The position numbers were made by a program, and so were the translations under genes. From Thermoproteota archaeon (GTDB taxonomy: Archaea > Thermoproteota > Thermoprotei > Thermofilales > B9-G17), in contig JAPDJW010000003.1 of the NCBI GenBank assembly GCA_029258885.1, positions 98,718-162,717 of the forward strand: a DNA stretch of 64,000 nucleotides, read 5' to 3'. Below, piece after piece: positions 1 through 64,000 of the stretch. The notes below the pieces were generated by a model that was not told the origin of the DNA, searched no databases, and saw only the letters and a list, made by a program, of their open reading frames with translations. How positions within the stretch are numbered: the first letter of the stretch is position 1; every line of letters begins with the position of its first letter.

Positions 1-1228
1 GTACAAGCTTCTTAACCATGCTAACGATCTTGTTCCTCCAAAAGCCTGTATAAGGACACATCACAGCCATTGGGTGATCCATGAATCTATTATAGTGCTC
101 CTCATACAGTTCACCAGCAGAATTCTTAGTAGCATATTTATATGCCTTTTCATCTGTCCAGCTTTTACACGTTGTATCCCATAGTCTAGCATTAACGTAG
201 ATTATAGTTACGAAGCCCCTTTCACGTAGTTCCTTAACAGTTTCAATAAACTTATCCTCTCCATCTCTGGGAGGAAAGTATTCGGGGACGTTAACATCGT
301 AGGGATTTGAATGCCACCAGTGCCACATTAGACCTATTCTTCCGTAAGGGGCAAGGTGTCTAAATCTTATCGCTGGATCAGCGACTTTATCACATCTGCC
401 CCTATTCCAGATCCAACAAACAACTTCCTTAAGCCTCTCAGGAAAATCGTCTCTATTTATTATCTTGCCCCGCCTACACCACCACTGCTTTAAGCCCCAT
501 CTCCTATACTTATCCGCAGCATCCATCCAGTTGCCGTCAAAGGGCAGTATATGCATGCTATATGGAATCGTTAATAAGCTACTACCAATGCCTTCATCTG
601 GAGGAAAGTATGTAAAACACACACTCTTCCCTGAGGATATTCTTAGCTCCTTAACGTAGCCCTTGCTATCGTCAAGGAACGCTACTAATCCGCTTCTCCC
701 AATACTATAGCCGAAGAACTGCATTGATAGGGGAGACGGATACCTGTATTTTAAGTAGTGTTTCTTTAAGGTCTCCTGAGGCTTAAAGACTTCTATGCCT
801 TGATGATCAGGTATTATCAATGAGGCACTTAAACTATCGCTGTTTCCAAGATGGATAAAAGGATAAGATATTTCGCGTATCTCGAGACTGGGGGCTTTAG
901 TTACCATTAGCTTAAGCTTTACTCCTCCGTATTGGCTAGGGCTAAGGGAAGCTACTACCTCCTTGATTTCTTTAAATGGAAACTCTCTCCATTTTAAATA
1001 TACTATATCTCTCTCGTGTTCGCATGTAAAATATTCGGCGGATTTCGAATCTACGTCTTTTAGAGATTTTATCAGCCACAGCTCTTTTTCTTCGTCAATT
1101 CTAGATATAGTTACTTTCTTCTCTAGATCCTCTATAGCTCTAATGCATCCCCTATTACCTAGCTCAATACCTATTTTTCCGAACCTAAAAAATATATTAT
1201 TTGAATCTCTTTGAGCTGAATTTATCAA
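1..1228 (-). CDS. DUF6259-like putative glycoside hydrolase (partial, runs off left edge)
   Basis: Not in ORF track; manual translation gives an open frame from TTG 1228 (after GGAGG) with YRYPSPLSMQFFGY, FDGNWMDAADKYRRW, WHWWHSNPYDVNVPEYFPPRDG, YVNARLWD, AVMCPYTGFW. Confidence 0.7.
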   Translation of the reverse strand, partial: MINSAQRDSNNIFFRFGKIGIELGNRGCIRAIEDLEKKVTISRIDEEKELWLIKSLKDVDSKSAEYFTCEHERDIVYLKWREFPFKEIKEVVASLSPSQYGGVKLKLMVTKAPSLEIREISYPFIHLGNSDSLSASLIIPDHQGIEVFKPQETLKKHYLKYRYPSPLSMQFFGYSIGRSGLVAFLDDSKGYVKELRISSGKSVCFTYFPPDEGIGSSLLTIPYSMHILPFDGNWMDAADKYRRWGLKQWWCRRGKIINRDDFPERLKEVVCWIWNRGRCDKVADPAIRFRHLAPYGRIGLMWHWWHSNPYDVNVPEYFPPRDGEDKFIETVKELRERGFVTIIYVNARLWDTTCKSWTDEKAYKYATKNSAGELYEEHYNRFMDHPMAVMCPYTGFWRNKIVSMVKKLV

Positions 1229-5648: not shown

Positions 5649-5704
5649 TGATCGACACCTGATATATTTATCTGAGAACATATTAATTTGTATGTTCATA
5701 ATCG

Positions 5705-7672
5705 TCACCAGGGAAGTATCCAGGTAGCCTTAGACAACATAACGATCGACGTGGCTATGCCCACTACGACTGCTTCGCCTGTAGCTACTCCAGCTACTAT
5801 AACGCCTCTATTCTTCCTCCACCAGTTCTCCCCGTACATTCTGGCCAGAAATCTGGCGATAATAGCGCCTATAATAAGACTTATCGAGTTTGCGGGCAGT
5901 ATATATGTCCCGGCGACGAGGCCGACTATGGAGAAGGGGAAGTTAAGGATTCTACTTAAAGTATCCCCGATAAACGCTACAGCTAACACCAGTATGAAGG
6001 AGTACAATATGGTGTCAACCTTCACTCCTATCTGTCTGCTAATCCACAACGCGCTTGTAGCTACGCTTACAGGCCACTGTATGTTCGTGAATGGGTATAG
6101 CGACGAGGGTATTGGAGCTATGCTCCAGAAGAAGGATACGTATATGAAGCTAAATACCGTATAGAGTACGACGGCCGTAAAATATGCCTTAAAGAAGTCC
6201 TCGGGCCTTGTCTCTGTTAGGAAGGCTGCCTTTATGGTGTTTCCCCATTGGGGCGAAGCTGTGAAAGGTAGGCCAAGCTGGGATACTGTCGGAGTTAAAC
6301 CGCTGAACATGGGGGAGAAGAGCCATGCATCCACCTTAGGATATCCTGAGCCAATTACGGCAAGCTGCCATATATAGGGTATCGATATCGGATAGCCTGA
6401 TTCAGCTATGCTTCTTGAAGCAACCAGCGAGTAGGTGAATCCTCCCCCTATAGCGATTAAGATCGCCAGCCATAGGGGGAAGTCGGGTACTATTAGATGA
6501 AACAGCAGTATTGATCCCAGAGATCCTGCTAAATAGAGCGTAGCTAGCGTTTTCAGACTTATATATCCCTTCCTTAAGACGTCAGTCCTAAGTCTGGATA
6601 GGCTCTTAAATGCCGATACAATGCTTCTTCTACTCTTAAATATTGAGAACACGGCTACCGCTAGTGCAAAGCCTATAAATGGAGTTATCCATACCCTGAG
6701 GAAGGATCTTTGGTAAACGGTTGATATGGTCATGCCTCTTGCCCATTCAATAGCCCATTCCTTAAAGTAATTAGCTAAGTAAGTTCTAGTTAGATAATTG
6801 CCGAAAACCCATACAGCTATTGATCCTATAAACATATAGACCACGGTGTGGAATGGAATTAAGAATGCTCCAGTAAATGTTAGAGGATCTGTTGCGAGGC
6901 CTAAGATAGCGCCCGGAAGGATATTTTCGATCCCAAAGGGGCCAGTAGTCAAATCGAGCCATGGAATTGGTATTACAACAATTCGGGTATTAAATAGACC
7001 TAACGAAATCGTCGGAACCCCATAGAGTATTATCGAATATATGGCGCCTAAAATAGCACTTGTTGTGAATATTCTCATCCTATCCTCCTCTCTCTCAGCT
7101 AATGTAATGCACATCTGGGCTGGAAACTCGGCAAAGGGATAGGGTAGCTTCTCTTCCTCTATGAAGATGTAGGCCATTATGTATGCTAACGCAACTTCCT
7201 GAATAAGCCATAAAAATATCTGAACCAAATATAGTGAGACTGGTATTATCCACTTTGAATTAAGAAAGCTTCTAACGGCTGTAGCTGGTAGTCTGGGAAC
7301 CCACCATTCAGGAATTACTTCACTTAGAGGTTTTCCAGAATAAGGATCGTAGAAGGACTTCGATATGGGCGAAGTGAAGAAGTAAAATCTATAGACGAAC
7401 TCTAAAAATGGAGCTCCTAAGAGAACTGGCGCTGCGGCCTGATATATTATGAATATCTCCTGCTTAGTTAGGGGCTTATCCATAAGCCTCGAAATTTCTG
7501 TAAAAAGTATTGCGGTTATGTATGTTATAGCGCTTGCTAGGATAGCACCTGAAGTAAGCTGAATATATATCGATACCGGGAGTAGGAGTGAAGCTGCAAC
7601 AAATATCGCAAGAAAAGATCTAAATGTATATCCTTTTTTTAAAACATATTCTTCACTCACATAATCACCCAT
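5705..7672 (-). CDS. OPT-superfamily-like peptide transporter
   Basis: 655 aa, many TM helices, EEEKLPYPFA motif, C-terminal AGVATGE. Confidence 0.7.
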   Translation of the reverse strand: MGDYVSEEYVLKKGYTFRSFLAIFVAASLLLPVSIYIQLTSGAILASAITYITAILFTEISRLMDKPLTKQEIFIIYQAAAPVLLGAPFLEFVYRFYFFTSPISKSFYDPYSGKPLSEVIPEWWVPRLPATAVRSFLNSKWIIPVSLYLVQIFLWLIQEVALAYIMAYIFIEEEKLPYPFAEFPAQMCITLAEREEDRMRIFTTSAILGAIYSIILYGVPTISLGLFNTRIVVIPIPWLDLTTGPFGIENILPGAILGLATDPLTFTGAFLIPFHTVVYMFIGSIAVWVFGNYLTRTYLANYFKEWAIEWARGMTISTVYQRSFLRVWITPFIGFALAVAVFSIFKSRRSIVSAFKSLSRLRTDVLRKGYISLKTLATLYLAGSLGSILLFHLIVPDFPLWLAILIAIGGGFTYSLVASRSIAESGYPISIPYIWQLAVIGSGYPKVDAWLFSPMFSGLTPTVSQLGLPFTASPQWGNTIKAAFLTETRPEDFFKAYFTAVVLYTVFSFIYVSFFWSIAPIPSSLYPFTNIQWPVSVATSALWISRQIGVKVDTILYSFILVLAVAFIGDTLSRILNFPFSIVGLVAGTYILPANSISLIIGAIIARFLARMYGENWWRKNRGVIVAGVATGEAVVVGIATSIVMLSKATWILPW

Positions 7673-17915: not shown

Positions 17916-18659
17916 TTGATACTGCAGCTAAAACTGATTTCAGGTTATATGAGTGAACTAGAGCGTAAGGAAAGCTATAGGGGAATTGAGAGGCTTGTAC
18001 AGCTTATAATACAATCTATACTTGACTTAGGTCTAATGATTCTTTCCATAGTTGGATGTGAAACGGATATAGTCTATAAGGATATAGGGAGGAAGCTTAG
18101 GGAGAGAGGTTTTATTGACAAGGAGGATGAATCCTTTCTCATCGATGCGGCCGGGATGAGAAATGTACTGGTTCATGGATACTTTAGGATAGATAGGGAC
18201 ATTATTTTAAATACCGCCAGAAGGGAGCTTCCAAAGTTCGTTCCTAGGTTCATAGAGAAGATTAAGCCTAAAATAGATAGCTTAAGTGTAGAATCTAGGG
18301 AATATGCCGTCCTCGGGAGTATCTTTAGAAGGAATGGGGTTAAGCTAGCATTCCTATTCGGCGGGAGAGCATTGGGATATAAAATTAGGGGAGGTTATGA
18401 TTTCGCAATATACTATGAAAGGAAATATAGCTTTAGGGATGTAGGTAGAATAGCCGTAGAAATATCCGATAAAATGAATGTTCCACTTGAGAAAATCGAT
18501 ATACTTGTCCTTGATAACGCGGATCCCGAGACGGCATTAAAGGCAGCCATGGGTATTCCAATATATTGGGATGACGAATACGAGCTATTCGAATACAGGT
18601 ATAGATGCCTGAGAGAGGCGCTGGATCTAAGAGTAAGCAGGAGCTTAATTAACACCTAG
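17916..18659 (+). CDS. HEPN (DUF86) - minimal nucleotidyltransferase fusion, probably degenerate
   Basis: RNVLVHGY (Rx4HxY); LFGGRALG...GYDFA (degenerate GS/DxD). Confidence 0.8.
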   Translation: MILQLKLISGYMSELERKESYRGIERLVQLIIQSILDLGLMILSIVGCETDIVYKDIGRKLRERGFIDKEDESFLIDAAGMRNVLVHGYFRIDRDIILNTARRELPKFVPRFIEKIKPKIDSLSVESREYAVLGSIFRRNGVKLAFLFGGRALGYKIRGGYDFAIYYERKYSFRDVGRIAVEISDKMNVPLEKIDILVLDNADPETALKAAMGIPIYWDDEYELFEYRYRCLREALDLRVSRSLINT

Positions 18660-20714: not shown

Positions 20715-21542
20715 ATGGAGAGGCTTATTAAGGAGGCATTAAGCTTAGGCATTGATCCTGAAACTTACCTCAGGGAGGTAATTCAAAAGCTAATCCTGTA
20801 CAGTTACGTAATTAATAATTTAGGTAGCTACTACGTCTTCCAGGGAGGAACAGCCTTAAGGCTATTCTACAATTCTCCTCGATTCTCATTAGATATGGAT
20901 TTTAGCCTCATTAATCGTAGCCTAACAAAAGCCATGGAGGATTCTACGAAAGTTCTAAATACTCTCTCCCACATCCTCGCCCCATACAAGGTAGAAGTTT
21001 CTAAATCTAGGGAAAAAGCCTTATTCGAGGAAAATTTCTATAGATTTTTCTACACGTTTAACACGCTTGGAATTATTAGGAGAAAAATAAGAATTAAGCT
21101 CGAAATCGCTGAAAGGAACTACATGAACGTTTCATTTAGTAGAAAAATTCTAACATTAGAGTTCCCTATTCATACCTCCATAGGATTAATTGTTAAAAGT
21201 CCAGCACAGCTCTTATGCGATAAAGTTACTTCCCTCGCTGGCGGCTTCCATAGGGGATACATTAGATGGAGGGATATCTTCGACATATATTGGCTTAAAA
21301 CCAAGATCAATGCTAGGATAGATTCCAACTATTTAAAGCAGGAATTCGGATCATATATTGAAACGAAGGAAGACTTAGAAAAACTAGTATCTAAGCTTAA
21401 GGCTCTTTCCGGCAAGGAATTAGGCGAGGCAAGTAGAGATCTAGGTAGAGTACTGCCCTCTTCTCTTCTCGACGAAAAACTACTAGCGGAGTATATAGGC
21501 GATGCCATTAAAGTTCTAGAGGAGGCGATTAGGGAGCTATGA
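20715..21542 (+). CDS. AbiEii/AbiGii nucleotidyltransferase toxin (type IV TA)
   Basis: VFQGGTALRLFYNSPRFSLDMDFS, CDK, RWRDIFDIY. Confidence 0.9.
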   Translation: MERLIKEALSLGIDPETYLREVIQKLILYSYVINNLGSYYVFQGGTALRLFYNSPRFSLDMDFSLINRSLTKAMEDSTKVLNTLSHILAPYKVEVSKSREKALFEENFYRFFYTFNTLGIIRRKIRIKLEIAERNYMNVSFSRKILTLEFPIHTSIGLIVKSPAQLLCDKVTSLAGGFHRGYIRWRDIFDIYWLKTKINARIDSNYLKQEFGSYIETKEDLEKLVSKLKALSGKELGEASRDLGRVLPSSLLDEKLLAEYIGDAIKVLEEAIREL

Positions 21543-22093
21543 GCATCCTAAGTTGGATAAAAATCTTCAACGATCTAAGAAGGAAGGGTATAAAAATTGT
21601 TCACGTAAGCTTCTTAAAAGCGGTAAGCGGCTTATCACCGAAAAGTCTATCAGTTGCCCTATGGAGGCTAGAGAGGAGGGGGCTAGTAGAGCGGGTTGGA
21701 AGGGGATGGTACTGCATAGATTGCTGTGAAACATGGGAAATAATTAGAGTAGTTTTCCCATCAGCCTACCTTACCCTAGAATGGGCTCTACACTACCACG
21801 ATATACTCGACCAGAGAGTTACCATTATAACTCTAGCATGGCTTGGAAAAACTAAAACCGTTAAAGTAGGCGAAAGAACCTACGAGCTACATAGGATTAG
21901 CAGGAAACTATACTTTGGATTTAACGATAAAATGATAGCAGAACCCGAGAAAGCTTTACTCGACACACTCTACTACAGGGGGAAACTCCCGCCAGAGCTA
22001 AACCTAGATCTACTGGACAAAAATAGGCTAGCCAAATACTCCGAAAAATACCCTCCGAGAGTCAGAAGAAAACTTAAAACCCTAATACCGTAA
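21539..22093 (+). CDS. AbiEi-like antitoxin
   Basis: wHTH LERRGLVERVGRGWY, AYLTLEWALHYH, IAEPEKALLDTLY; ATGA overlap with toxin. Confidence 0.85.
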   Translation: MSILSWIKIFNDLRRKGIKIVHVSFLKAVSGLSPKSLSVALWRLERRGLVERVGRGWYCIDCCETWEIIRVVFPSAYLTLEWALHYHDILDQRVTIITLAWLGKTKTVKVGERTYELHRISRKLYFGFNDKMIAEPEKALLDTLYYRGKLPPELNLDLLDKNRLAKYSEKYPPRVRRKLKTLIP

Positions 22094-28173: not shown

Positions 28174-28407
28174 TTTTTAATTCTCGAGGATTATGGGCTC
28201 ACATATCATCGTCCTTCCGTCAATGGGATATATTTTGTGGTCAGCACTCAAGATCTTCTTCATTTCTCTGCAGGGCCAGAGTCATCATCTAATTTAATCT
28301 AGGAATTAGTAGTATTAATTTTTAACCTAGCATTATTCTATGATATGTTTTTCGCGGATTAGGCGATGGCCTGTAGTTTTATAATGGTTTACCACCTTAA
28401 ACTAGTG

Positions 28408-30373
28408 ATGTCTATAGCTTCGGTATGCCCTAGGGATTGCTACGATACCTGTTTTCTAAAGGTTGTTGTTAGAGGCGGTAGGGTAGTATCCGTTGTAGGC
28501 GATGATGCGAATCCTATTACGGGAGGTTTTACGTGTCCGCGAGGTGCTCGTGACAACGTTAGAGTATACGTCAATAGAGTCCTCTATCCATACGTTAGGG
28601 CTTCGCCTAAGCCAGGCAGGGGATTTAAGCGTGTTAAGTGGAGCGAGGCATTGGACTACGTGGTTGATAGGCTTAAACATGTTCTAAAAAACTATGGTCC
28701 TAAAGCCGTGCTTCACCTCGAGTATGCCGGTAACATGGGTCTATTAACGTGGTATTTTCCTCAGAGGCTTTGGAATGCATTAGGGGCCGTGGGTACCGAC
28801 TACAGCATCTGTAGCAAGTCTGGTCATGAAGCCATATCCCTACACTATGGCCTAAGCTATGGTGTTCAGCCAGATGAACTCCCTAACATGAGGCTGATAG
28901 TATATTGGGGATTTAACGCCGTAGTTAGCTCACCTCACTTATGGAGGCTATCTCTAGAGGCTAGGAAAAACGGAGCTGTTATATCTGCTGTAGACCCTAG
29001 GAGTAGTAAGACCGCTAAGCTTGCTGATATATGGGTTAATCCTAGGCCTGGAACCGACGTTGCCATAGCATATGGTATCTCCCGATATATCATAGAGCAC
29101 GGCTATATTGATGAAGATTTCATTGAGAGATGGACGTATGGATATGAACAGTTTAGGGAGGAAGCTATGAGGTGGACGCCCGATAGAGTTGAAGCCGTAA
29201 CTGGCGTTAGATGGAGGCTTATTGAGGAGCTCGCTGACGTATATTGTAGGCTGAGGCCCAGCGTGACGATGATTGGAATAGGACTACAGAAGAGCCTCTA
29301 CGGCGCTGAATCCGTTAGGGCGATATCCCTAATACCAGCTCTACTAGGCATTCATAGAGGATTCTTCTACAGCAACAGTAGGGGCTGGTATATCGATATA
29401 CCCTACATATCTGGAGAAAAGTTCCTTAAGAATAAGCCTCCTAAAGTTAGTCAGGTCGCTTTAAGCAGATATATTGAGGAGGGACGCTTTAAGTTCATAT
29501 TTATCTACAACATGAATCCCCTCGTAACCCTACCCGATCAGGGAGCATTGAGGAGGGGATTAGTGAGGAATGACGTATTTGTTGTTCTTCACGATACCCA
29601 CTGGGGCGAGACAGCGGACTACGCCGACGTAGTTCTTCCAGCCCCAACCTACCTTGAGAAGGATGATCTAGTGATATCCTACAGCCACAGGTACGTTAGG
29701 ATATCGAGGAGGGCTATAAAGCCTCTCGGAGATAGCAGGGATGAAATCTGGCTCATGAGGGAGATAGCTAGGAGGCTGAATCTAAACGTAAGCTGGATAT
29801 TTGAGGACCCATGGGGGGGCTCTTGAAAAGGCTTTAGATAATGCATTTGAAGATGGATGTTTCAGAGACCTAGTTGAGGGGAAGATACTCAAGCTTAAGT
29901 ACAGGCCGAGAAATGAGTATCAGACGCCGACGGGCAGGATAGAGTTCTATTCAATTAAGGCGGAGAGGGAGGGGCTTAATCCGCTACCCCAATACCATGA
30001 ATTCAGTATAGGTGAGGATGAATTCATTCTGTTAAATAGTTCAACTGCAAGATACACGCATACTCAGTTTAGGGAGGTATATGGTCCAATACCGCCTATT
30101 GTCCTAATAAATCCTAAGGATGCCGAGAGACTTGGAATAGAAGAGGGAGACGAAATAGAAATCTACAACGAGCTGGGCTCAATTAGAGTAGTAGCACACA
30201 CATCGTTAGATGTATCAGTCAAAGTATTATGGTCGCCGAGACAACTAATAGATCTAAGCGGTAAACCACAGAATGTAATCACTCTATCTAGGAGACAGAA
30301 AATAGGGGGAGGACCAATATTTAACTCAATAATCGTTAAGATAAGAATATCCGTCGATAAATTAGTAGGCTGA
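28408..30373 (+). pseudogene. Molybdopterin-dependent oxidoreductase (DMSO reductase family), frameshifted in G7 tract
   Basis: CPRDCYDTC, ADYADVVLPAPT; frame break at GGGGGGG 29813-29819; TPTGRIEFYS and INPKDAERLGI in next frame. Confidence 0.85.
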
Positions 30374-33771: not shown

Positions 33772-34023
33772 ATGGCTGTAGAGAGGTATAAAGTTAAGGT
33801 ACATAGGAAGGGCTTAGTGGTGATTCCAGCGGATATAAGAAGGAAATTCGGTATATATGAAAATTCGTATGTATACTTCATTGTGGATGAAGACGGTATA
33901 CGTCTAGTTGTTCCAAGGGATTTAAGAAGCGCTTTTGGAGTGGACGGCGAGAAGGCTTTAGAAGTGGTCAAGTTAATCCATGAGTCGAGGAGGATGGAGG
34001 TTGAAGGAGAAATACATTCTTGA
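33772..34023 (+). CDS. AbrB/MazE-type antitoxin
   Basis: VKVHRKGLVVIPADIRRKFGI. Confidence 0.9.
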   Translation: MAVERYKVKVHRKGLVVIPADIRRKFGIYENSYVYFIVDEDGIRLVVPRDLRSAFGVDGEKALEVVKLIHESRRMEVEGEIHS

Positions 34024-34423
34024 TGCAGGAGTCCTAGCGTTGTATTTCGCTGGAGATAGAAATGCTAAGAAGTATGTGGATAAAGCCTATTCCGGTAAAG
34101 CTAGAATATTTATCTCCGAATTAAATATGGCTGAATTCATATATAACTACGCTAGAGTCTTTGGATGGAGTACGGCATTAGCCAGAAATGATTTATTGCG
34201 GAATAGTCCTATGGAAATTGTGGGAGTATATGAGGATCTAACTTTAAAAGCTTCAAAATTGAAACTAAAATATTACGACACATTATCTCTAGCGGATTGT
34301 TATCTCATAGCTACTGCTAAAACGTTTAAGGCAACTATCGTGACAACGGATAGCAGAATAAGGTATGTAAATGAAGCTCCAACGGTATTGATAAAGCTCA
34401 AACAGCCATATACCATGAATTAA
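34001..34423 (+). CDS. vapC: VapC PIN-domain toxin
   Basis: YILDAG, LSLADCY, IVTTD; TTG after GGAGG. Confidence 0.9.
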   Translation: MKEKYILDAGVLALYFAGDRNAKKYVDKAYSGKARIFISELNMAEFIYNYARVFGWSTALARNDLLRNSPMEIVGVYEDLTLKASKLKLKYYDTLSLADCYLIATAKTFKATIVTTDSRIRYVNEAPTVLIKLKQPYTMN

Positions 34424-54958: not shown

Positions 54959-55204
54959 ATGGCAATTATAAGTGTTAGGGTAAGTGATGAAATCAAGAAA
55001 CGCATGGATAGGCTTAAACACATCAACTGGAGCGAAGTCATTAGAAGAGCAATAATTAAGACACTAGAGGAAGAGGAGGGGAGAAACCTAGCAAGAGCGG
55101 TACTACTAAACGAGAAAATCAGGAAAAAAGCACCTGAGGGATGGGATAGCACAGAGATAATTAGGTACTGGAGGCAACGTAGATATGGAGCGAATAGTAA
55201 GTGA
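54959..55204 (+). CDS. RHH (VapB-type) antitoxin
   Basis: IISVRVSDEIKKRM..INWSEVIRRAI..DSTEIIRYWR. Confidence 0.88.
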   Translation: MAIISVRVSDEIKKRMDRLKHINWSEVIRRAIIKTLEEEEGRNLARAVLLNEKIRKKAPEGWDSTEIIRYWRQRRYGANSK

Positions 55205-55607
55205 CGCAAGCGTAGTAGTCAAATGGTTCATACAAGAAAAACACTCAGATAAAGCTCTAAAACTAAGAGACATGCATGTAAACGGAGAAATCCTCATAGC
55301 CGCCCCAGAACTACTACCATTCGAAGTCTTAAATGCCCTAAAATACAGCCAGCTCTTCACCCTAGAAGAATTAAAAATGGCAGCTATATCCCTCTCAAGC
55401 TACGGCATAGAACTATATCCACTAAAAGGAAAACTCGCCGAAAAAACAGTAGAAATATCAGCTAAAAAAGACATAACAATCTACGACGCATCATACATAG
55501 CCCTAGCACAAGAACTAAAAACAATCCTATACACAGCCGACGATAAACTCATAAGAAAAATAGGAAAAGAATATGCCAAAAACATACTGCATGTATCCAA
55601 GATCTAA
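55185..55607 (+). CDS. vapC: VapC PIN-domain toxin
   Basis: VSDASVVVKWF, ITIYDASYIALA, YTAD. Confidence 0.92.
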   Translation: MERIVSDASVVVKWFIQEKHSDKALKLRDMHVNGEILIAAPELLPFEVLNALKYSQLFTLEELKMAAISLSSYGIELYPLKGKLAEKTVEISAKKDITIYDASYIALAQELKTILYTADDKLIRKIGKEYAKNILHVSKI

Positions 55608-55705: not shown

Positions 55706-56104
55706 TTAATCTCCAATATACACGACATCCCTTAAACCCTTAAACAGCCTATCCCCAGTAACTAGTTTAGTTCCCAAGATTCTCGCTATAGCCAATACGA
55801 CAGCATCCACCAGACTAGGCGTCCTAAGCTTCTCCCAACGCGCTCTCTCTAACAACTCAAAATAGACTTCAGCCGCCTTAAGAGCAACACTAGAATCCAC
55901 ACTAACGACTATGCTCTTAAACTCCATAAACCTAAGCCTCTTAACAACCTCCTCCCGACTAAACCCCTCCCTTAAATACTTCCTAGCAATTTCAGCTAAC
56001 ACTACATCAGGAGTATAAGCCCCTTTCTCCAGTAAGTCCTTAACCACCCTACCCTTAGGAGATCCCAGAAAATACTCCACCCATGCATAGGTATCAAGAA
56101 TCAT
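55706..56104 (-). CDS. vapC: VapC PIN-domain toxin
   Basis: MILDTYAWVEY, SLVDA, LVTGD. Confidence 0.92.
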   Translation of the reverse strand: MILDTYAWVEYFLGSPKGRVVKDLLEKGAYTPDVVLAEIARKYLREGFSREEVVKRLRFMEFKSIVVSVDSSVALKAAEVYFELLERARWEKLRTPSLVDAVVLAIARILGTKLVTGDRLFKGLRDVVYIGD

Positions 56105-56304
56105 AACCTATCCTCCATCCGATCCCTTGCAGAAAACGGCTTTAACCTACCCTTATCAACGCCAAACATATCCATAGGCAACCCTGCCTTTTCAAAAACC
56201 AGCCTCTCAATAACCTCATCAAAACTCTTAACTCCATACTCCCTCTTAAGAAGCTCAAGAAGCATACGAGTCCTTCTACTAACCTGAATAGTAGTAGACA
56301 CCAT
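56101..56304 (-). CDS. VapB-type antitoxin
   Basis: TTIQVSRRTR..KSFDEVIERL; ATGA overlap with toxin. Confidence 0.85.
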   Translation of the reverse strand: MVSTTIQVSRRTRMLLELLKREYGVKSFDEVIERLVFEKAGLPMDMFGVDKGRLKPFSARDRMEDRL

Positions 56305-56400: not shown

Positions 56401-59400
56401 TTACCTTTTAACACACACAGTATAGACGCCAGATCCCGAGCTATTCTCCAGATCATATGCAAGCCTCTTCAACGTATAATTTGAAGCTAAAATGAAAACC
56501 TGGGGCATACGTGAAAGATCCAAAACAATATCCTTAAGCCTATAGATGTCACTCCTCTTAACTATAACAGTCTCAGGCTCAATAAGAGGCATACCCAACA
56601 TACCGTAGAGCTCCCTAAAGCTTTCAACAAAAGAACTCCTATAACCATAAGGCAAAACAACAGCTATGCTATTCGGGGGATACTCCTTCTCAAGAAAATG
56701 AATAAGAGTTAAATAAGCCATAAACTCAGCTAACATCTTCTTATCCCTATAACGAACCCATAAATTTAGCCTTCCTTTCTTAATCAGGGTATTATACATC
56801 CTAAATACTTCAGTATCGACATAAGCTAGCTTCATCTTCTTTTCACTAATAAATTCCCTATATAAATCCTTGATAGATCTTGAAAGATACTCCTTAATCA
56901 ACATCCTAGCAACCTTATCCCTCTCATCAGCAGGCTTGCTCACAACAGTTTCAGCATAATTATTCATGTAGAATAATGCAACCATCTCGTAGAATTGCTC
57001 TCTCCTAACCAGATCATAGGCATCTCTCCTATTTATCTGAGGAACAAGGTAGTTTATGAGCACTGCCTCTTTGGCTCCAGTTATCCTCAAACCCAATTCT
57101 TCCCCGTTACCTCCGGCTGGTTTAATTAATAATCGTAGATTTCCTGGAAGCCCTTCAGGAATAAATTTAACAAGGGCATCGTATCCACCATACAGCCCAA
57201 CCACATAAGCATCGTAAAGACTACCATCATGCTTCACATCTTTCAGCGTAGCTAAATAGAGATCTTTATTACCGATTTTGGCTATGCGAACTCCAGCGGA
57301 AACCTCATCATCAGTAACCACAAATCTATCATAAATTATATCATAGTCCAATATACCTAAGCGAGCCATAAGATTAAGGGATTTCCTAACACATGTATCC
57401 ACGCGTTCAGGCAACGTCCTCCCATATGCAACGTATTTCCACGTATTGCCATACATGAAGTTATGCACCAGAAGACAGAGAATAACCAACGGTATACGAG
57501 CATCCGTTCCAGCATATCTAGCGAGGAATTCGTGTATCACAAAGACAACCCTAGGATCTATAAAACCTCTCTTAAGCAGGGTATAACGCCTCCTAAAATC
57601 ATAGCCTGGCGAGAAAAGCATTACAGCCCTACAGAGTTCACCATCCCTGCCTCCTCTACCAATCTCCTGATAATAGTCCTCCACCGTCTCGGGCATAATA
57701 TAGTGGACAATCCACCTAATATTTGGTATATCCACGCCCATACCGAAAGCCTTAGTAGCCACAATAATCCTAGGATATCTAATTACACCTCTACTAACCA
57801 TATAAAGAGAATCCAATATACGCTTCTTCTCCCTCCTATCAAGCTGTCCATGGAAATACCCTACCTTCTCGTTCAACACCTGAGATAGATACTCAGCTAT
57901 AGTCTCAACGTTCTCATACTCTCTAGTCGATCTAACAAAGCCCGTATAAACTATACCTATCCAAGGCCTACCGCCCGAAACCTCCTCGCTCCAATCAATC
58001 AGATCCCTCACAACCTTAGCCAAATACCTAAGCTTACTCTCTCCAGCCGGAGCAGCCATAACGTTTATCGTAATATTATCCCTGAGAACAGGCCCCTTAA
58101 TCACCTTCACCTGAAACCTCATCTCGGCAACACTACGATCATAATCCGTGCTAAAATCTATCTCATCAATATCAAAACCCTCCGCACCAGACAGAAATTT
58201 TAATACCGCCTCAAGCTCGCTTGAAGGAAGAGTTGCCGTAAACCCAGCTATAGGGATCCAGAAACCCTCGCTTCTCCTCTTCCTGAGGTATTCGGCAAGA
58301 TACATGTAGCTAGGCCTAAAGCTCCTCCCCCATTTACTTAAAGTATGTATCTCGTCAAGAATAACGTAGTTTATATCAGCCTTCTCAAAGCTTCTCCTAA
58401 CAATCTCCTTCTGAAACTGCTCCGGCGTAATATACACAAGATCGTACTCGCCCCTAGCCAAACCCCTAATCAACCTACTCCTCGTAGAAGAATCAACTAA
58501 ACCAGTTATCCTACATACACGTATACCCCTCCTCCTAAGGCTATACACCTGATCCTCAATCAACGCCAGAAGCGGAGAAACAACAACAGTAGTACCTCCA
58601 ATCCTCCTCCTAAGCACCCTAGCAACAGACTGAAAAATCAGCGACTTACCAGATCCAGTAGGCAACAGAACTATCGTCAAAGGCATATTAACCCTAGACC
58701 CCTCCCTACAATAGGGCAAAAGAAGCCGAGCAACGCACCTTCTCTGATAAGGCCTAAGCCTAAAGCCCCACTTCTCAGCCACAACCTCCTCAACACGCCT
58801 CAAAGCATCATCTAAAGAATCAAAAACCACATAAGAAAGCTCCACGTCAACGTCATCCCTCGGCATAACAGTAATGTGATCAACATAGTCGTGTAGTCCA
58901 ACACTAGAGAGAATACCGTACTTGGCATTTAGAACGGTAAGTCCTATACCGCCATAATATGATGCTTCGATAAGCATTTTTAAGAACTCCTCCAGCCTCC
59001 TAGTACTAGCCAACCTAGCCCTAAGAGTCCTCAACGAGTAGAGAACAACCGAATACCTCCATCCAGCAAACCTACGCATATACCTGAGAACCTTAAGAGC
59101 CTTCGAACCGCCGACATTTAAAACAATAGCCTTACCCTTAACCTTAAAAGCCGCATCCCTAGCAATAAACTCCTCCGCCCTATTAGCGACAACAACCAGA
59201 GAACAACCTTCAGATACAATAGACGCTAGAATCCTGCCAAGATATCTAAAATGCCTAGAACTCTTATCCAACCCCTCCTCAACAACACGCAACACCCTCG
59301 GAGGCTTCTCAGGTGCCTCAATCAATACGTCGTAGAGATCGAAGTCCTGTGGAAACACCGTATGGAACACGACTTCATTGAAATTATCTTTAGCCCAGCT

Positions 59401-60666
59401 GAGAACCTCCCCCAGCCTACCTCCACAATACACCTTCAACAGATAAGCGCCAACAAACCTAATCCTACCAGCCTTTCCGCCACCAATCCTCCAGCGGGAA
59501 ATAAGATCATAAAGATGCCTATACTCAACCGAAAAGCCGCTCCGCAGATCAGGGAGAGGATTCTCAACACAAACCCTATCCAAGATATCCCTGAGAGAAT
59601 CCGCAATACTTCTATAGGGGATATAGAGCTCCCTCAACTCATCTACACTTCTACCGCCACCCCTCAGATAGGACTCAACAATAATCAAAGCCAACCTATC
59701 CGACATAGAATAGAGGGATGAACCTAAAGCCGCCAGCTTCTCACGGCTAACAACCAGCGGATACCAAGCATCAACACAATCATAAGCATCAAAAACCACA
59801 GCAACCTCAAAACTACTGCTACATTTAAACCTACTACGCCTAAAAACAAACTCCCTGGAAGGAACGTTAATAACCTTTAACCCGACCAAAGGATAGTAAT
59901 CAACACTCACGATGGCGTCCAGCAAGCCCTTACTCTTAGCAATCCCCACCAGATACGGCAGAATCATAGCAGAGGCATAAGCATCCTCATCAGCCACGTG
60001 AGGAGTATAATCAACACCAAAAACATCGCTTAAATATTCCAGCGAGTGAAAACGAGCCTCGGGAACCACAAGCAGAGACAACAGATAAGTATCAATCAAG
60101 GGAACACATAAATCCACACCCCAACCACGCAAAACCTCCAAGTCATGAAGAAAAACATTATGCCCAACAACAACCCTAAACCTACCCAAAAACTTCCTAA
60201 GAAAATTACGGGGCTCAACACCATATTTATCAACGAGAGCCTTAAAATCAGAAACCCTAAGCCTAAAAGCAACACTCCAATCACGGCTCCTAATAGCCAC
60301 AAAACCAATCTCCCTAGGCCTCCTCTCAAACACAACCTCAGTCTCAACATCCAAAGCAACAACATCAACGTCCAAATCCAAAATCCTAGCCCTAGGATCA
60401 TCAACACCAACAACACGAGTTAACTCAACAAACTTCTCAAACTCACCCCTAAAAAACAGAAAATTAAAAACCTCACCCAAAACAGCGGCCCCAACCCTAC
60501 GAGCCAAACCAGGCCTACCACGAACCAAACCATAAACTAAATCAACATCCCTTCTAACAAGAGCCTCCAGCAACAACCTCCTAAACCTAACCAAAGACCA
60601 ATACCTATAAACAAAATACAATAAAAGAAGAACAACCGCCAACAGCGGGATAACTTCAATCATCAT
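56401..60666 (-). CDS. N-terminal TM + DEDDh 3'-5' exonuclease + RecQ-family helicase fusion
   Basis: ALDVET, GHNVFLHD, IDT, PHVADEDA; PTGSGKS, SPLLALIEDQ, DEIH, WGRSFRPSY, TAT, ATKAFGMGVD, YYQEIGRGGRDG. Confidence 0.88.
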   Translation of the reverse strand: MMIEVIPLLAVVLLLLYFVYRYWSLVRFRRLLLEALVRRDVDLVYGLVRGRPGLARRVGAAVLGEVFNFLFFRGEFEKFVELTRVVGVDDPRARILDLDVDVVALDVETEVVFERRPREIGFVAIRSRDWSVAFRLRVSDFKALVDKYGVEPRNFLRKFLGRFRVVVGHNVFLHDLEVLRGWGVDLCVPLIDTYLLSLLVVPEARFHSLEYLSDVFGVDYTPHVADEDAYASAMILPYLVGIAKSKGLLDAIVSVDYYPLVGLKVINVPSREFVFRRSRFKCSSSFEVAVVFDAYDCVDAWYPLVVSREKLAALGSSLYSMSDRLALIIVESYLRGGGRSVDELRELYIPYRSIADSLRDILDRVCVENPLPDLRSGFSVEYRHLYDLISRWRIGGGKAGRIRFVGAYLLKVYCGGRLGEVLSWAKDNFNEVVFHTVFPQDFDLYDVLIEAPEKPPRVLRVVEEGLDKSSRHFRYLGRILASIVSEGCSLVVVANRAEEFIARDAAFKVKGKAIVLNVGGSKALKVLRYMRRFAGWRYSVVLYSLRTLRARLASTRRLEEFLKMLIEASYYGGIGLTVLNAKYGILSSVGLHDYVDHITVMPRDDVDVELSYVVFDSLDDALRRVEEVVAEKWGFRLRPYQRRCVARLLLPYCREGSRVNMPLTIVLLPTGSGKSLIFQSVARVLRRRIGGTTVVVSPLLALIEDQVYSLRRRGIRVCRITGLVDSSTRSRLIRGLARGEYDLVYITPEQFQKEIVRRSFEKADINYVILDEIHTLSKWGRSFRPSYMYLAEYLRKRRSEGFWIPIAGFTATLPSSELEAVLKFLSGAEGFDIDEIDFSTDYDRSVAEMRFQVKVIKGPVLRDNITINVMAAPAGESKLRYLAKVVRDLIDWSEEVSGGRPWIGIVYTGFVRSTREYENVETIAEYLSQVLNEKVGYFHGQLDRREKKRILDSLYMVSRGVIRYPRIIVATKAFGMGVDIPNIRWIVHYIMPETVEDYYQEIGRGGRDGELCRAVMLFSPGYDFRRRYTLLKRGFIDPRVVFVIHEFLARYAGTDARIPLVILCLLVHNFMYGNTWKYVAYGRTLPERVDTCVRKSLNLMARLGILDYDIIYDRFVVTDDEVSAGVRIAKIGNKDLYLATLKDVKHDGSLYDAYVVGLYGGYDALVKFIPEGLPGNLRLLIKPAGGNGEELGLRITGAKEAVLINYLVPQINRRDAYDLVRREQFYEMVALFYMNNYAETVVSKPADERDKVARMLIKEYLSRSIKDLYREFISEKKMKLAYVDTEVFRMYNTLIKKGRLNLWVRYRDKKMLAEFMAYLTLIHFLEKEYPPNSIAVVLPYGYRSSFVESFRELYGMLGMPLIEPETVIVKRSDIYRLKDIVLDLSRMPQVFILASNYTLKRLAYDLENSSGSGVYTVCVKR

Positions 60667-60673
60667 TTAATAT

Positions 60674-61654
60674 TATAACGCTCTTGTTTTTAGGTTAAAT
60701 GATTTATTGTTGTAATGCATTTATAGCATATGGATCAGGTTAAGCTTAAGCTAACCCTCACAGACGAGCAGGTAGTAGAGATGCTCCGAAAACACCGCTG
60801 GCCAAACGGCATAAAATGCCCATACTGCAAATCAAGCAAAATAGTCAAAAACGGCAAAGCACCAAACAAGCCATACCTCCAACGCTACCTATGCAGAGCC
60901 TGCGGCAGACAGTTCAGCGATACAACAGGCACACCCTTCGCCTGGACGGAGCTACCGCCAAGCGAAGTACTCACGATAGCATACCTATACTTCAAGCTGG
61001 GGATGAGCCAGCTAGCCATAGCTAGGGAGACCGGTAGGAGCAGAACAGCGGTCCGCCGAGTCGTCAAGCTATTCGGTAAAGCTATAGAGGCTTGGTTTCG
61101 AAAAATTGAGGCTGAGCGGGGAGGTTGAGGTCGATGAGGCCTACGTGCCTCTAGGCTGTAAGGGTAGGAGGCGGGCTACGCCTAGGCGTCGTGGCGGCGG
61201 TAGGCGTAGGGGTCGAGCAACCAACCGTAAGAAGCCCTTCTTTACTCTTGTTGAGCGCGGCTCCCGTAGGGCTCTCTTTCTAGCTGAGAAAGGCGTGTCG
61301 AGTAAGGTTGTTGCAGGCGTTTTGCTTAGGCATGTTGAGCGTGGTAGTGTGGTTTATACTGATGAGTTCCGCGGCTATGGGCGTGTGTCTGCTCTCGGCT
61401 ATGAGCATTTCTCGGTGAGGCATTCCAGCGGCGTTTACGCTGTTGGGCCTATGCATGTGAATGGTGCTGAGAGTGTGAATTGGCATTTAAGGGCTTTCCT
61501 CTTCTTTAAGCGTGGTGTATCGCTTTGGCAGGTGAATTTCTACGCTTATGCTACCTCCGCTTTCGTTAGGCTCTACGCAGATACGACGTTACATGCATGC
61601 CACTGGCTACTGGAGGTGATAGGTCAGAGCGTATTATTGTTTAAAAGCGTTATA
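60674..61654 (+). mobile_element. IS1595-family insertion sequence, transposase frameshifted
   Basis: RWPNGIKCPYC..CRAC Zn ribbon + HTH (60730-61128); VEVDEAY, YTDEF, HVNGAES (61106-61699); imperfect TIR TATAACGCTCTT / AAAAGCGTTATA (11/12); no TSD recognised. Confidence 0.85.
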
Positions 61655-61695
61655 GATGCTAGGGATTATGCATATATGTGTTTCGGATGCCTTAT
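61653..61695 (+). repeat. Inverted copy of 62818-62862
   Basis: 43 nt identical to the reverse complement of the 45-nt source except for one missing GT. Confidence 0.95.
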
Positions 61696-61714
61696 TTAAG
61701 AAGAAGTTTGTCCG

Positions 61715-62179: not shown

Positions 62180-64000
62180 TTAGAGTACCGTTATGCTGAT
62201 ACTTTTTGAAAATATCCTATTCTTGCATTTAACTGTTATGTTTCCGCCTGCCATACCTCTTGATCTTGCTTTACACTTAATTTTTATTTCTCTGATTTTG
62301 CCTTCGCTTAAATTCAATATTTCTATCTTATTCTTTTCAAGCTCCAAGTTTCTTGAGAGATTAGTTAAATCTATTATGACCTTACTTAACATAGTATTAG
62401 CTTGCAGATATAACTTTAGGTTAAAGTTTTCATTGATGCTAACATTGTCTGGAACCTCTATTGTTAAAACGCCGAAATTACAGGCCGATAATTCTATCTC
62501 AGCTAAATACTTTACCAGCCTCGAAATTACATACTCCATATCTCTAGCCTTAAGATCATTGATGCATCCTATTATGACTTCGATTGAATCATAGCATGCT
62601 CTATTCATACATAGAGCTATCTCTGATTTTACATGACTTTTAATTTTTAGCTCAGGGATATTATTAGCGACAAATAGAGCCCTGTTAAAAATTTCATATG
62701 CATCCACACAGTCTTTCTCCATATAATATCCTATATTAGCTAATGTAGAAGCTAGGTATATAGGATTTCTGATACTATATGATAGATTAAGAGATAAATT
62801 ATACATTTTTATACTCGATAAGGCATCCGAAACACACATATATGCATAATCCCTAGCATCTAAATTGCCGATTTCTCCAGCTAGTGTAATGCCGTTTGAT
62901 GCCATATTCTTTAGGCATAGAGAAAAAGCCATAAGTATTCTATATGGGTCACCCCTATTAACATGCCTTGAATACTTTATATAATCTATTAAGTCTATAA
63001 TTTCATCCCTAAATTTTGTGTTAATTAACCTATTAGCTATATATCCTAGCGGCAATAACGTATATGCTATTCTTTCAGAGTTCTTCGCTAATGATACCGC
63101 TTCACGAACGTAACCTATATCGAAAAGAGGAATAGAGAATAAAGGCCTATCAGTGTAATTCTTGAATAAGTGCTTGATATAAAAACTTAAGAATAAAGTT
63201 TCACTAACAGTTTTTAGCAAAGTAATGTTTGAAATCCTTGAAACTACATTTGCTGACGAATACTTGTCTAATCTGCTTATTATATTAAGTAGATTAGAGG
63301 ATAAATTAGAAATAGTTTGCTCATCATCGCAATTCCTTATAATGCAAATAAGCGCAAGAGCCCGTATTTCATCACTACTGATGTTATTTAAAATCACCAT
63401 ACTATCCTCTATAAGATTAGCATGTAACATGTTTATTAGCACACATAAGAAGAAGAGATCTCTACAATATTGATTAGATATATTTCTACATAAACTAATA
63501 GCTTCTCTAAATAATGAAACTTTTAAATCATCCGGCAACATTAGAGCTGCATCCGATAATGCTAAAGCTTTCAAACGTTGTGGGCTTAAGTCCTTAATAA
63601 CCATGTAAATATTATTGATATCATTAATACTAGCAAAATATTTCGCTAAACCCAAAAGTACTATATTCCTCCATCTCCCATCTTTGATATTTTCCGCTAA
63701 ACTTAATATCTGATCCACATTAATATCTCTAGATCCTGTGGATAAAATATCATAAATTGCCAAAGAAAGATCTTCTTCATCTTTTATCATCGATAAATAG
63801 AATAATGCATCTTCAGGATTTCTTTCTAATAAGGCTAAAACAATAGTTCTTAAAGCTCTACTATACCATATACTTCCTTTAAGCTCTTCACTTATTTTTA
63901 ACGCCTCGTTAATTAATCCCTTTCCAGCTAATATACGGGCTATGTTTTTAAGCGAAATCATCCTAGCTTTTACATCCTTTAACCCCTTAGCTACAATAAT
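62180..64000 (-). CDS. HEAT/TPR-like helical-repeat protein with C-terminal Ig-like domain (partial, runs off right edge)
   Basis: Repeats like EALKISEELKGSIWYSRALRTI; frame stays open beyond ATG 63961 to the edge; very AT-rich. Confidence 0.7.
   Translation of the reverse strand: MIVAKGLKDVKARMISLKNIARILAGKGLINEALKISEELKGSIWYSRALRTIVLALLERNPEDALFYLSMIKDEEDLSLAIYDILSTGSRDINVDQILSLAENIKDGRWRNIVLLGLAKYFASINDINNIYMVIKDLSPQRLKALALSDAALMLPDDLKVSLFREAISLCRNISNQYCRDLFFLCVLINMLHANLIEDSMVILNNISSDEIRALALICIIRNCDDEQTISNLSSNLLNIISRLDKYSSANVVSRISNITLLKTVSETLFLSFYIKHLFKNYTDRPLFSIPLFDIGYVREAVSLAKNSERIAYTLLPLGYIANRLINTKFRDEIIDLIDYIKYSRHVNRGDPYRILMAFSLCLKNMASNGITLAGEIGNLDARDYAYMCVSDALSSIKMYNLSLNLSYSIRNPIYLASTLANIGYYMEKDCVDAYEIFNRALFVANNIPELKIKSHVKSEIALCMNRACYDSIEVIIGCINDLKARDMEYVISRLVKYLAEIELSACNFGVLTIEVPDNVSINENFNLKLYLQANTMLSKVIIDLTNLSRNLELEKNKIEILNLSEGKIREIKIKCKARSRGMAGGNITVKCKNRIFSKSISITVL

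Follow-up and report, generated by a model that had tools for sequence, protein, structure and literature searches.

We analyzed a long minus-strand gene (56401-60666) in a 64,000-nucleotide stretch of contig JAPDJW010000003.1 (assembly GCA_029258885.1), which belongs to a Thermoproteota archaeon of the order Thermofilales; this entire stretch is referred to below as the window. The gene is one uninterrupted frame of 1421 codons without an internal stop, and its product is predicted to carry an N-terminal hydrophobic helix that is conserved in relatives, and to unite in one intact polypeptide a DEDDh exonuclease with a full catalytic set and a complete RecQ-type motor. Structural modeling points to three further RecA-like domains that lack NTPase motifs, namely a pair of lobes between the nuclease and the motor and a domain at the C-terminus. 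An earlier note on this DNA, made by reading the letters alone, had proposed the succession of membrane anchor, DEDDh exonuclease and RecQ-type helicase in an archaeon, and this order is supported by the open reading frame (ORF), the motifs and the conservation of the helix. The features of the gene, all on the minus strand, are as follows, from the N-terminus of the product to its C-terminus:

56401-60666, minus: the whole gene, a single ORF of 1421 amino acids; predicted membrane-anchored DEDDh exonuclease, pseudo-helicase and RecQ-type helicase
60595-60654, minus: predicted single N-terminal transmembrane helix, residues ~5-24 (hydropathy, conservation in relatives)
60382-60594, minus: juxtamembrane region, residues ~25-95 (invariant and near-invariant alignment columns)
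59932-60381, minus: predicted DEDDh 3'-5' exonuclease domain, residues ~96-245 (motifs, RNase_T, 2p1j)
58840-59814, minus: putative pseudo-helicase, two RecA-like lobes with a DinG/XPD-like fold but no Walker A or B motif, residues ~285-609 (structural model and its VIA-align matches)
57577-58791, minus: RecQ-type superfamily 2 helicase core, residues ~626-1030 (Pfam, NCBIfam, alignment, PDB search)
57337-57558, minus: helical hairpin and winged-helix-like region, residues ~1037-1110 (weak winged helix-turn-helix matches)
57091-57282, minus: variable low-confidence insert, residues ~1129-1192 (pLDDT below 50, indels)
56404-57030, minus: helical bundle followed by a putative terminal RecA-like alpha/beta domain without a P-loop, residues ~1213-1421 (structural model and its VIA-align matches)

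Domain architecture of a rare archaeal family

A word-indexed search of 5.8 billion proteins with the window protein recovered 89 matches, among which are proteins of approximately 1300-1450 residues from metagenome bins labeled Thermoproteota, Korarchaeota and 'Thermoprotei'. These proteins, 22 of them full-length, are 31-45% identical to it across most of their length, and a fragment (P0002) is 97% identical. Our full-length alignment (A1) accordingly comprises the query and 22 of the 89 matches, all near-full-length with E<=1e-171; two fragments (P0002, P0015) and one match of low coverage (P0020) were left out. Sub-alignments were built from the DNA of orthologous loci found by genome and metagenome scans. 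These sequences define a rare family whose members are predicted to be tethered to the membrane by a single pass, with their catalytic domains presumably on the cytoplasmic side. The full-text literature searched, including PMC4158269, yielded no description of this family.

The sole strongly hydrophobic 19-mer of the window protein starts at residue 1 (mean Kyte-Doolittle value 2.66) and is followed by RYWSLVRFRR. A hydrophobic N-terminal segment trailed by K/R is present in 22 of the 23 aligned members of A1, the exception (P0013) having a later start, and an equivalent stretch, likewise followed by K/R, is found in all 12 orthologs translated from their loci (Kyte-Doolittle values 2.42-3.37). 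As these orthologs begin only a few residues ahead of the helix, the window ORF is complete at its 5' end; by the same token, the possibility that the true start lies downstream of the helix is countered by the presence of its equivalent throughout the relatives, and the N-terminal hydrophobic helix and basic residues noticed earlier are thus confirmed. Hydropathy and alignment together point to a single-pass protein with one conserved helix of ~20 residues and a flanking charge bias. According to the positive-inside rule, the basic residues flanking a helix stay on the cytoplasmic side. Since the basic residues follow the helix here, we infer an N-out/C-in topology with the bulk of the protein in the cytoplasm, a placement that an ATP-dependent motor also requires.

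The DEDDh exonuclease domain displays the complete motif set claimed for it by the earlier note. The ExoI (D106, E108), ExoII (H169-N170...D175) and ExoIII (H223-x4-D228) residues are invariant in 23/23 sequences of A1, and D106, E108, D175, H223 and D228 are also invariant in 13/13 sequences of A4, a profile of residues 1-250 with 12 orthologs. Conserved positions in the preceding juxtamembrane region (D40, F71, F76, F79 and D90) are apparent in both alignments. The A4 profile matches 2p1j, a proofreading exonuclease of the PolC type, at E 1e-4, in an alignment that includes ExoII and ExoIII. The Pfam RNase_T model (PF00929) has a match at E<=0.01 in each of the 13 members (best E 1.6e-7), and a precomputed PF00929 match exists for five relatives. 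In the window protein itself the RNase_T match is weak (E 0.04 over residues 157-235), scoring 14.9 bits in the whole protein and 19.2 bits with residues 1-250 against a gathering cut-off of 24. PF01612 is not among the four Pfam families reported for the exonuclease regions of the 13 members. DEDDh nucleases trim nucleotides from 3' ends.

The helicase core is unmistakably RecQ-like in its sequence. It contains motif 0 (LRPYQ), motif I (PTGSGKS, with K674), motif II (DEIH, 771-774) and motif VI (QEIGRGGRDG), and is covered by Pfam DEAD (639-819) and Helicase_C (911-1009) matches. In all 23 aligned sequences Q641, G671/G673/K674/S675, D771/E772/H774, A811/T812, T971-G977 and, except for position 1005, Q1000-G1009 are invariant, so that the superfamily 2 motifs 0, I, Ia, II (DExH), III, V and VI are all represented. 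When residues 620-1040 were compared with the PDB, all 38 sequences at E<=1e-10 belonged to the RecQ family (bacterial RecQ, RECQ1, Q4, Q5, WRN and BLM), the best being Deinococcus radiodurans RecQ (4q47, E 1.8e-36). The aromatic loop between motifs II and III, HTLSKWGRSFRPSY, aligns to the RecQ HCVSQWGHDFRPEY, with W779, F783, R784, P785 and Y787 invariant in A1. Hence, the alignment and the PDB matches substantiate the full set of RecQ motifs, aromatic loop included, that had been recognized by eye. NCBIfam also ranks RecQ models first, yet the scores fall below their cut-offs (TIGR00614 recQ_fam, 166.8 versus 219.8 bits; TIGR01389 recQ, 186.2 versus 640.2). RecQ-type helicases are patchy in archaea, and RecQ motors move 3'-to-5' on single-stranded DNA.

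Between the nuclease and this core, the earlier note had seen about 400 residues of unassigned linker. It is indeed without sequence matches: the region ~246-625 has no Pfam match, Pfam DEAD_2 and Helicase_C_2 do not match the window protein, and a profile of the region (A2) compared with the PDB gave nothing below E 0.1. It does not, on the other hand, model as a linker. The AlphaFold2 (AF2) model of residues 236-640 is confident (pLDDT 88.9, pTM 0.83). Foldseek returned only weak rows for it (XPD, DEAD-box, RAD51, KaiC), none at E<=1e-3, and an exhaustive VIA-align search recovered RecA-like domains, with the second RecA domain of DbpA at the top (Z 9.8, 131 residues aligned). Matches spanning both lobes were obtained with DinG (6fwr, Z 9.2, 299 aligned), XPD (Z 9.1) and Staphylococcus aureus DinG (Z 8.3, 319 aligned), values that lie just above the stated VIA-align background of Z 7-8. 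No P-loop or Walker motif is seen among the conserved columns of A2. We accordingly regard the former linker as a likely, rather than certain, ATPase-dead module of the DinG/XPD-like fold class. A search of 1.84 billion representatives with its profile retrieved no more than 15 proteins at E<=1e-3, each a family member or a fragment of one.

The C-terminal region (~1031-1421), noted previously as long and unassigned, has no Pfam match, and its profile (A3) found nothing below E 0.1 in the PDB; its model (residues 1010-1421, overall pLDDT 78.3) suggests winged-helix, helical and RecA-like folds. The region 1037-1209 matches winged helix-turn-helix domains weakly (Z 7.4-7.8 over 63-72 residues), and the winged-helix-like part occupies the place of the zinc-binding and winged-helix module of RecQ. 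The four-cysteine RecQ zinc-binding domain (PF16124) gives no Pfam match at E<=1 in the window protein, nor is there a cysteine cluster: the zinc-module region has only C1012, C1064 and C1092, none of which is conserved in A1. HRDC likewise has no Pfam match at E<=1 in the protein. Some accepted RecQ members also lack HRDC; hence, its absence alone does not exclude a protein from the RecQ family. Residues ~1213-1421 are modeled with pLDDT ~85-95, and the terminal alpha/beta domain, which carries a conserved VPYGY with P1339 and G1341 near-invariant, resembles helicase 1A/RecA domains (PcrA 2pjr, Z 10.2; Rep, Z 9.9; VIA-align). Foldseek with the C-terminal model gave no match at E<=1e-3, and a protein atlas queried with the C-terminus returned no named family (best score 0.86). 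In a metagenome-assembled genome (MAG) of the Archaeoglobales, the locus L040 (5887-10128, plus strand) encodes a divergent exonuclease-plus-RecQ-like relative without a membrane helix, in which the C-terminal domain has weak matches to the P-loop models AAA_22 and SRP54 at residues 1176-1264. The terminal alpha/beta domain of the window protein might accordingly be a decayed NTPase.

Phyletic distribution and genomic context

The family is sparsely and unevenly distributed. Among 40 relatives from the same order only one has a match, which is partial and at a contig end (two of 41 if the source genome, G000, is counted). When 401 genomes sampled evenly across the phylum were scanned, 14 had a match. 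In twelve of these the match is restricted to the helicase core, and the twelve are all the sampled genomes of one Acidilobaceae-like family, such that, after removal of the core-only matches, G000 and one partial match carry this architecture. We scanned 30 ORFs of at least 1200 residues with sub-profiles for the N-terminus, the exonuclease, two halves of the linker, the helicase and two C-terminal parts: eight have the full architecture, 20 have the helicase core only, and two, from Archaeoglobales, combine exonuclease and helicase in divergent versions. The members come from Korarchaeia (Methanodesulfokora), assorted Thermoproteota, Pyrodictium and Desulfurococcales MAGs. Two copies occur both on contigs of Methanodesulfokora washburnensis (74% identical) and in a Desulfurococcales bin (84% identical), where strain mixing within the bins is possible. 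No family member was found in viral contigs, where only RecQ cores of ~28% identity appear, and tblastn of residues 1-640 against phage and plasmid records gave no match.

The core-only proteins are large helicases of 1270-1400 residues from Acidilobus, Aeropyrum, Caldisphaera and Thermodiscus, which resemble the window protein in size and in the position of the core, the latter being ~35-43% identical. A hydrophobic N-terminal segment is present in 6/20 of these proteins, yet they escape the sub-profiles for N-terminus, exonuclease, linker and C-terminus, save for a weak match of one protein (L038) to the CtA sub-profile (E 3e-4); hhalign of the N-terminal profile against an Acidilobaceae-type protein found no similarity (probability <1%). 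Their own flanking regions, an N-terminus of ~600 residues and a C-terminus of ~350 residues (loci L016-L023 and L035-L051), match nothing tested, and the protein appears to be an uncharacterized core helicase.

No neighbor is conserved among the 13 family loci compared, the exceptions being an MBL-fold protein common to L028 and L118, one small gene in L024 and L028, and the near-identical pair L077/L086. Together with the single match among 40 relatives of the order, this argues against the family being a widespread housekeeping gene in a conserved context. Five of the 13 distinct loci, the source genome included, have a recognized defense gene in the flank, which was examined up to ~17 kb in the source genome and ~6 kb or less elsewhere. 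The gene adjoins an OLD/AriA/GajA-like ATPase in L028 and a Type IIG restriction-modification (R-M) enzyme in L077; a GmrSD-like protein lies in the flank of L078 and an SMC/LmuB/PbeC-like ATPase in that of L091. Toxin-antitoxin (TA) modules flank the gene in the source genome and in L024, and several family loci have transposases, TnpB or a resolvase nearby. At L031, L079 and L083 the neighbors are unassigned or surface proteins only.

Comparison of the gene with its 97%-identical allele (L070) over 810 codons revealed 26 synonymous-only and 21 amino-acid-changing differences, and an indel of five codons at residue ~1159. A 15-nucleotide in-frame insertion at 57182, the same spot, occurs in two other metagenome runs. 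Because non-synonymous sites are about three times as numerous as synonymous ones, this pattern suggests purifying selection with a tolerated variable loop, as a rough estimate from one allele pair.

In the source genome, the TA modules and the insertion sequence (IS) reported earlier around the gene are both present. The neighboring features, and the TA-type modules elsewhere in the window (five in its 64 kb), are:

60668-61699, plus: IS1595-family element (Pfam Zn_ribbon_IS1595 and DDE_Tnp_IS1595)
55706-56304, minus: VapB-like antitoxin (56101-56304) and PIN toxin (55706-56104); directly downstream of the gene on the same strand
54959-55607, plus: DUF6290/PIN pair, beyond VapB/PIN on the downstream side
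33772-34423, plus: MazE/PIN
20715-22093, plus: AbiEii/AbiEi
17916-18659, plus: single ORF with HepT-like and Polbeta nucleotidyltransferase domains

The left end of the IS lies within ~3 bp of the ATG of the gene at 60666. Its inverted repeats are at 60666-60684 and 61626-61644, other copies in the genome start matching at window positions ~60664-60678, and metagenome contigs break with loose ends at 60668-60688. The read depth is 75-107 over the IS versus 6-10 over the gene, and in four metagenome runs the element is roughly ten-fold deeper than its flanks. The contigs from four DNA runs offer no IS-free allele of the upstream region; a single X2 contig diverges at 60624, inside the gene. A TATA-like A/T-rich stretch upstream of the ATG was considered as a native promoter and rejected, as it belongs to the IS terminus. 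The transposase is distributed over two overlapping ORFs (60730-61128, 132 residues with the zinc ribbon and helix-turn-helix; 61106-61699, 197 residues with the DDE domain), probably owing to a frameshift. Short partial copies of the element, resembling miniature inverted-repeat transposable elements and consisting of the left ~230 bp and the right ~30 bp, are found elsewhere in the genome, with 11 matches in total including the element itself.

Directly beyond the IS and extending past the window lies an island of low GC content (29-37%; L118 2828-15921, approximately 64810-77903 were the window coordinates extended). It encodes two Type II methylases, a DpnII-like endonuclease, PDC-S11 (E 1e-96), a 451-residue MBL-fold protein and a prokaryotic Argonaute (pAgo) of 465 residues (PADLOC E 1e-100; Pfam Piwi 2.5e-10). 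Two ORFs of the island without assignment (356 and 472 residues) may be partners of the pAgo. Between the IS and the R-M genes, the minus-strand ORF at 62180-63961, extending to ~64057 in the genome (593-625 residues, 32% GC), is matched by neither Pfam nor PADLOC.

The remainder of the window is given over mainly to sugar transport and metabolism with scattered TA modules; PADLOC detects AbiE there and no defense system adjoining the helicase gene. Elsewhere in it, a molybdopterin oxidoreductase occupies two overlapping plus-strand ORFs (28366-29826 and 29801-30373), with the catalytic part and Molydop_binding in different frames, which could reflect a frameshift, a sequencing error or a genuine split. 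At 1197-5708 (minus strand) is a 1503-residue membrane protein with M28 peptidase and MacB/FtsX permease domains, whose strong PADLOC match to 'CARF_LolE_TM' (E 1.7e-58) is restricted to the permease part.

Possible functions

The reading that we favor, at a strength a little below evenly balanced, is that a stand-alone nuclease-helicase, mobile by horizontal transfer, breaks down invading or aberrant DNA at the membrane. The helicase would load on a 3' tail, an end or a fork and unwind the DNA, and the nuclease of the same polypeptide would degrade the freed 3' strand: as RecQ motors move 3'-to-5' and DEDDh enzymes remove nucleotides from 3' ends, one strand can be the substrate of both activities, as in WRN. 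The dead helicase module and the C-terminal domains might serve as DNA-binding or regulatory scaffolds. The target could then be DNA at the cell periphery, for instance viral or plasmid DNA entering with free ends. This placement is suggested by the predicted confinement to the membrane together with a gene that is rare, patchy, accessory and often in variable regions. A role as a one-gene anti-mobile-element nuclease-helicase, instead of a housekeeping repair enzyme, is favored on account of the rarity and patchiness of the gene, its lack of a fixed context and its frequent proximity to defense or mobile genes. For the defense role raised in the earlier note there is circumstantial support, i.e. 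the R-M and pAgo island beyond the window and the defense genes at five of the 13 loci. A bolder version of the same idea, which we regard as possible but doubtful, is that the protein is the founding member of an undescribed type of archaeal immune effector. Here, a membrane-tethered RecQ-type helicase-exonuclease would recognize free ends or 3' tails of entering DNA and degrade it on the spot, the dead DinG-like and the degenerate C-terminal NTPase-like domains would be sensors of DNA or the invader, and confinement to the membrane would be a self/non-self safeguard that keeps the activity from host forks.

Several observations weigh against a role in defense. The recognized defense genes at no more than 5/13 loci are a raw count, and the neighbors are ordinary at L026 (CbiM/ABC, Hyp), L084 (aconitase and others), L025 (glycosyltransferases) and L033. 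The defense labels that PADLOC assigns to the helicase core, namely DpdF (E 1e-62), PsyrT (RqlH; E 8e-55) and 'alt. Cas3', were rejected, as the matches cover only the generic RecQ-like core; NCBIfam DpdF scores 161.3 bits against a cut-off of 550, and PADLOC found no Dpd or PsyrA partner among 55 ORFs of the window. The Acidilobaceae-like cousin of the core is universal in its family (12/12) and syntenic within genera, with one neighbor common to 5/8 loci, a pattern suggestive of a core cellular function in related enzymes. Finally, with the end of an IS beside its start codon, this copy of the gene may be silenced or be driven by an IS-borne promoter.

That cousin bears directly on the alternative that the protein is a DNA-repair or replication-fork enzyme, an analog of WRN or of the exonuclease-bearing DinG, with the anchor reflecting where the nucleoid or forks are handled. 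We consider this rather unlikely. In its favor, besides the large RecQ-like helicase in 12/12 genomes of one family, the domain logic is that of WRN (exonuclease plus RecQ) and exonuclease-DinG, bacterial proteins with RNase_T, DinG-like and RecQ-like domains in this order exist, and some orthologs lie among housekeeping genes. An extremely patchy distribution, the lack of a conserved neighbor, duplicate divergent copies in some assemblies and a defense island adjoining the gene in the source genome weigh against such a role, and repair RecQ and WRN enzymes are soluble and not known to be membrane-tethered. WRN and exonuclease-DinG are described as repair or replication-stress factors (PMC12345164, PMC12525004).

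The anchor would equally place a helicase-nuclease where transported DNA appears, and the protein might process DNA during import or export across the membrane, as in competence-, Ced- or conjugation-like systems, unwinding the duplex and degrading one strand at a pore. This seems improbable to us, since at the annotated loci we see no recurrent pilus, channel, HerA/FtsK-like pump or other transport gene beside it; this negative is a weak one, as no search of the genome aimed at Ced or competence genes was made. The DNA-uptake enzyme that had been offered alongside defense thus gains no specific support. A further alternative is that the gene is cargo of a mobile element and serves the replication or maintenance of that element, or that this copy is a relic silenced after IS insertion at its start. 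IS1595 does abut the start codon, several loci have genes for transposases, TnpB or a resolvase in their vicinity and the taxonomic spread suggests horizontal transfer. Against this, no members were found in viral contigs or in phage and plasmid records, no integrase or replication gene recurs beside the gene, and the ORF is intact, with a full complement of catalytic residues and more synonymous change than expected relative to the near-identical allele. We rate this the least probable of the readings.

In the full-text literature searched we found no description of a RecQ core combined with a membrane anchor, a nuclease of the proofreading type and what looks like a fossil second helicase. 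If the anti-mobile-element role is correct, the family would extend the short list of immune mechanisms in archaea by a one-gene, membrane-localized system for the end-dependent degradation of DNA, and would also supply a thermostable helicase-nuclease for biochemistry. If it is instead a repair enzyme, it would represent an independent invention of the Werner-type pairing of nuclease and helicase, and would raise the question of why hyperthermophiles tether DNA processing to the membrane. In either case, some 800 previously unassigned residues now have testable fold assignments.

Comparison with known nuclease-helicase systems

The 'Werner-like' designation in the earlier note applies to the order of domains. 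Like the window protein, WRN has an N-terminal 3'-5' exonuclease (here residues 96-245) ahead of the RecQ core (here 626-1030), and WRN helicase cores are among the PDB matches of the window core (E ~1e-29). However, the WRN protein among our matches (P0083) has a PF01612 nuclease of the DEDDy type and the RecQ zinc-binding, RQC and HRDC modules, whereas the window nuclease is DEDDh, of the RNase_T type, and zinc-binding and HRDC modules were not detected in the window protein. Unlike WRN, it also has the dead helicase module of ~325 residues between nuclease and helicase, and the membrane helix. By these sequence features it is Werner-like in layout only and not a member of the WRN family. 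In comparison to bacterial RecQ (Escherichia coli 1oyw, D. radiodurans 4q47), it shares the core, motifs 0-VI and the aromatic loop, but falls below the recQ_fam cut-off, lacks the zinc-binding cysteine cluster and HRDC, and is longer by ~1000 residues.

The exonuclease-bearing DinG proteins of S. aureus and Bacillus subtilis show the same succession of an N-terminal DEDDh exonuclease and a two-lobe XPD/DinG fold, and the window module can be superimposed on the S. aureus protein (9ii8) and E. coli DinG (6fwr) over 319 and 299 residues, respectively, with the Z scores given above. Unlike DinG, the module has no ATPase motifs, and the predicted active motor is the separate RecQ-type core. A parallel in layout is also provided by bacterial proteins of ~1700-1990 residues (P0041, P0072, P0084 and ~30 similar matches) from sources including Acidimicrobiaceae, Streptomyces and Ca. 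Poriferisodalis, in which RNase_T, DinG-type helicase and RecQ-type helicase are fused in one chain; no paper on these triple fusions was found in the literature searched. The three named proteins (1773-1985 residues) have the same fold order as the window protein and RecQ cores ~28-36% identical to its own, but their DinG module, unlike that of the window protein, still matches Pfam helicase families. When the archaeal linker and C-terminus profiles were compared with P0072 by hhalign no similarity was found (probabilities <1%), such that the likeness to the bacterial fusions extends to the order of folds only. Moreover, the exonuclease of P0072 starts at residue 5, leaving no room for an N-terminal membrane helix.

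The single-protein nuclease-helicase defense systems Nhi and Hna, and the RecQ-like defense components DpdF and PsyrT/RqlH, are alike in concept, with nuclease and helicase brought together in one system. Among nuclease-helicase fusions the window protein is unusual in its predicted membrane anchor, its putative fossil second helicase and its apparently degenerate C-terminal NTPase-like domain.

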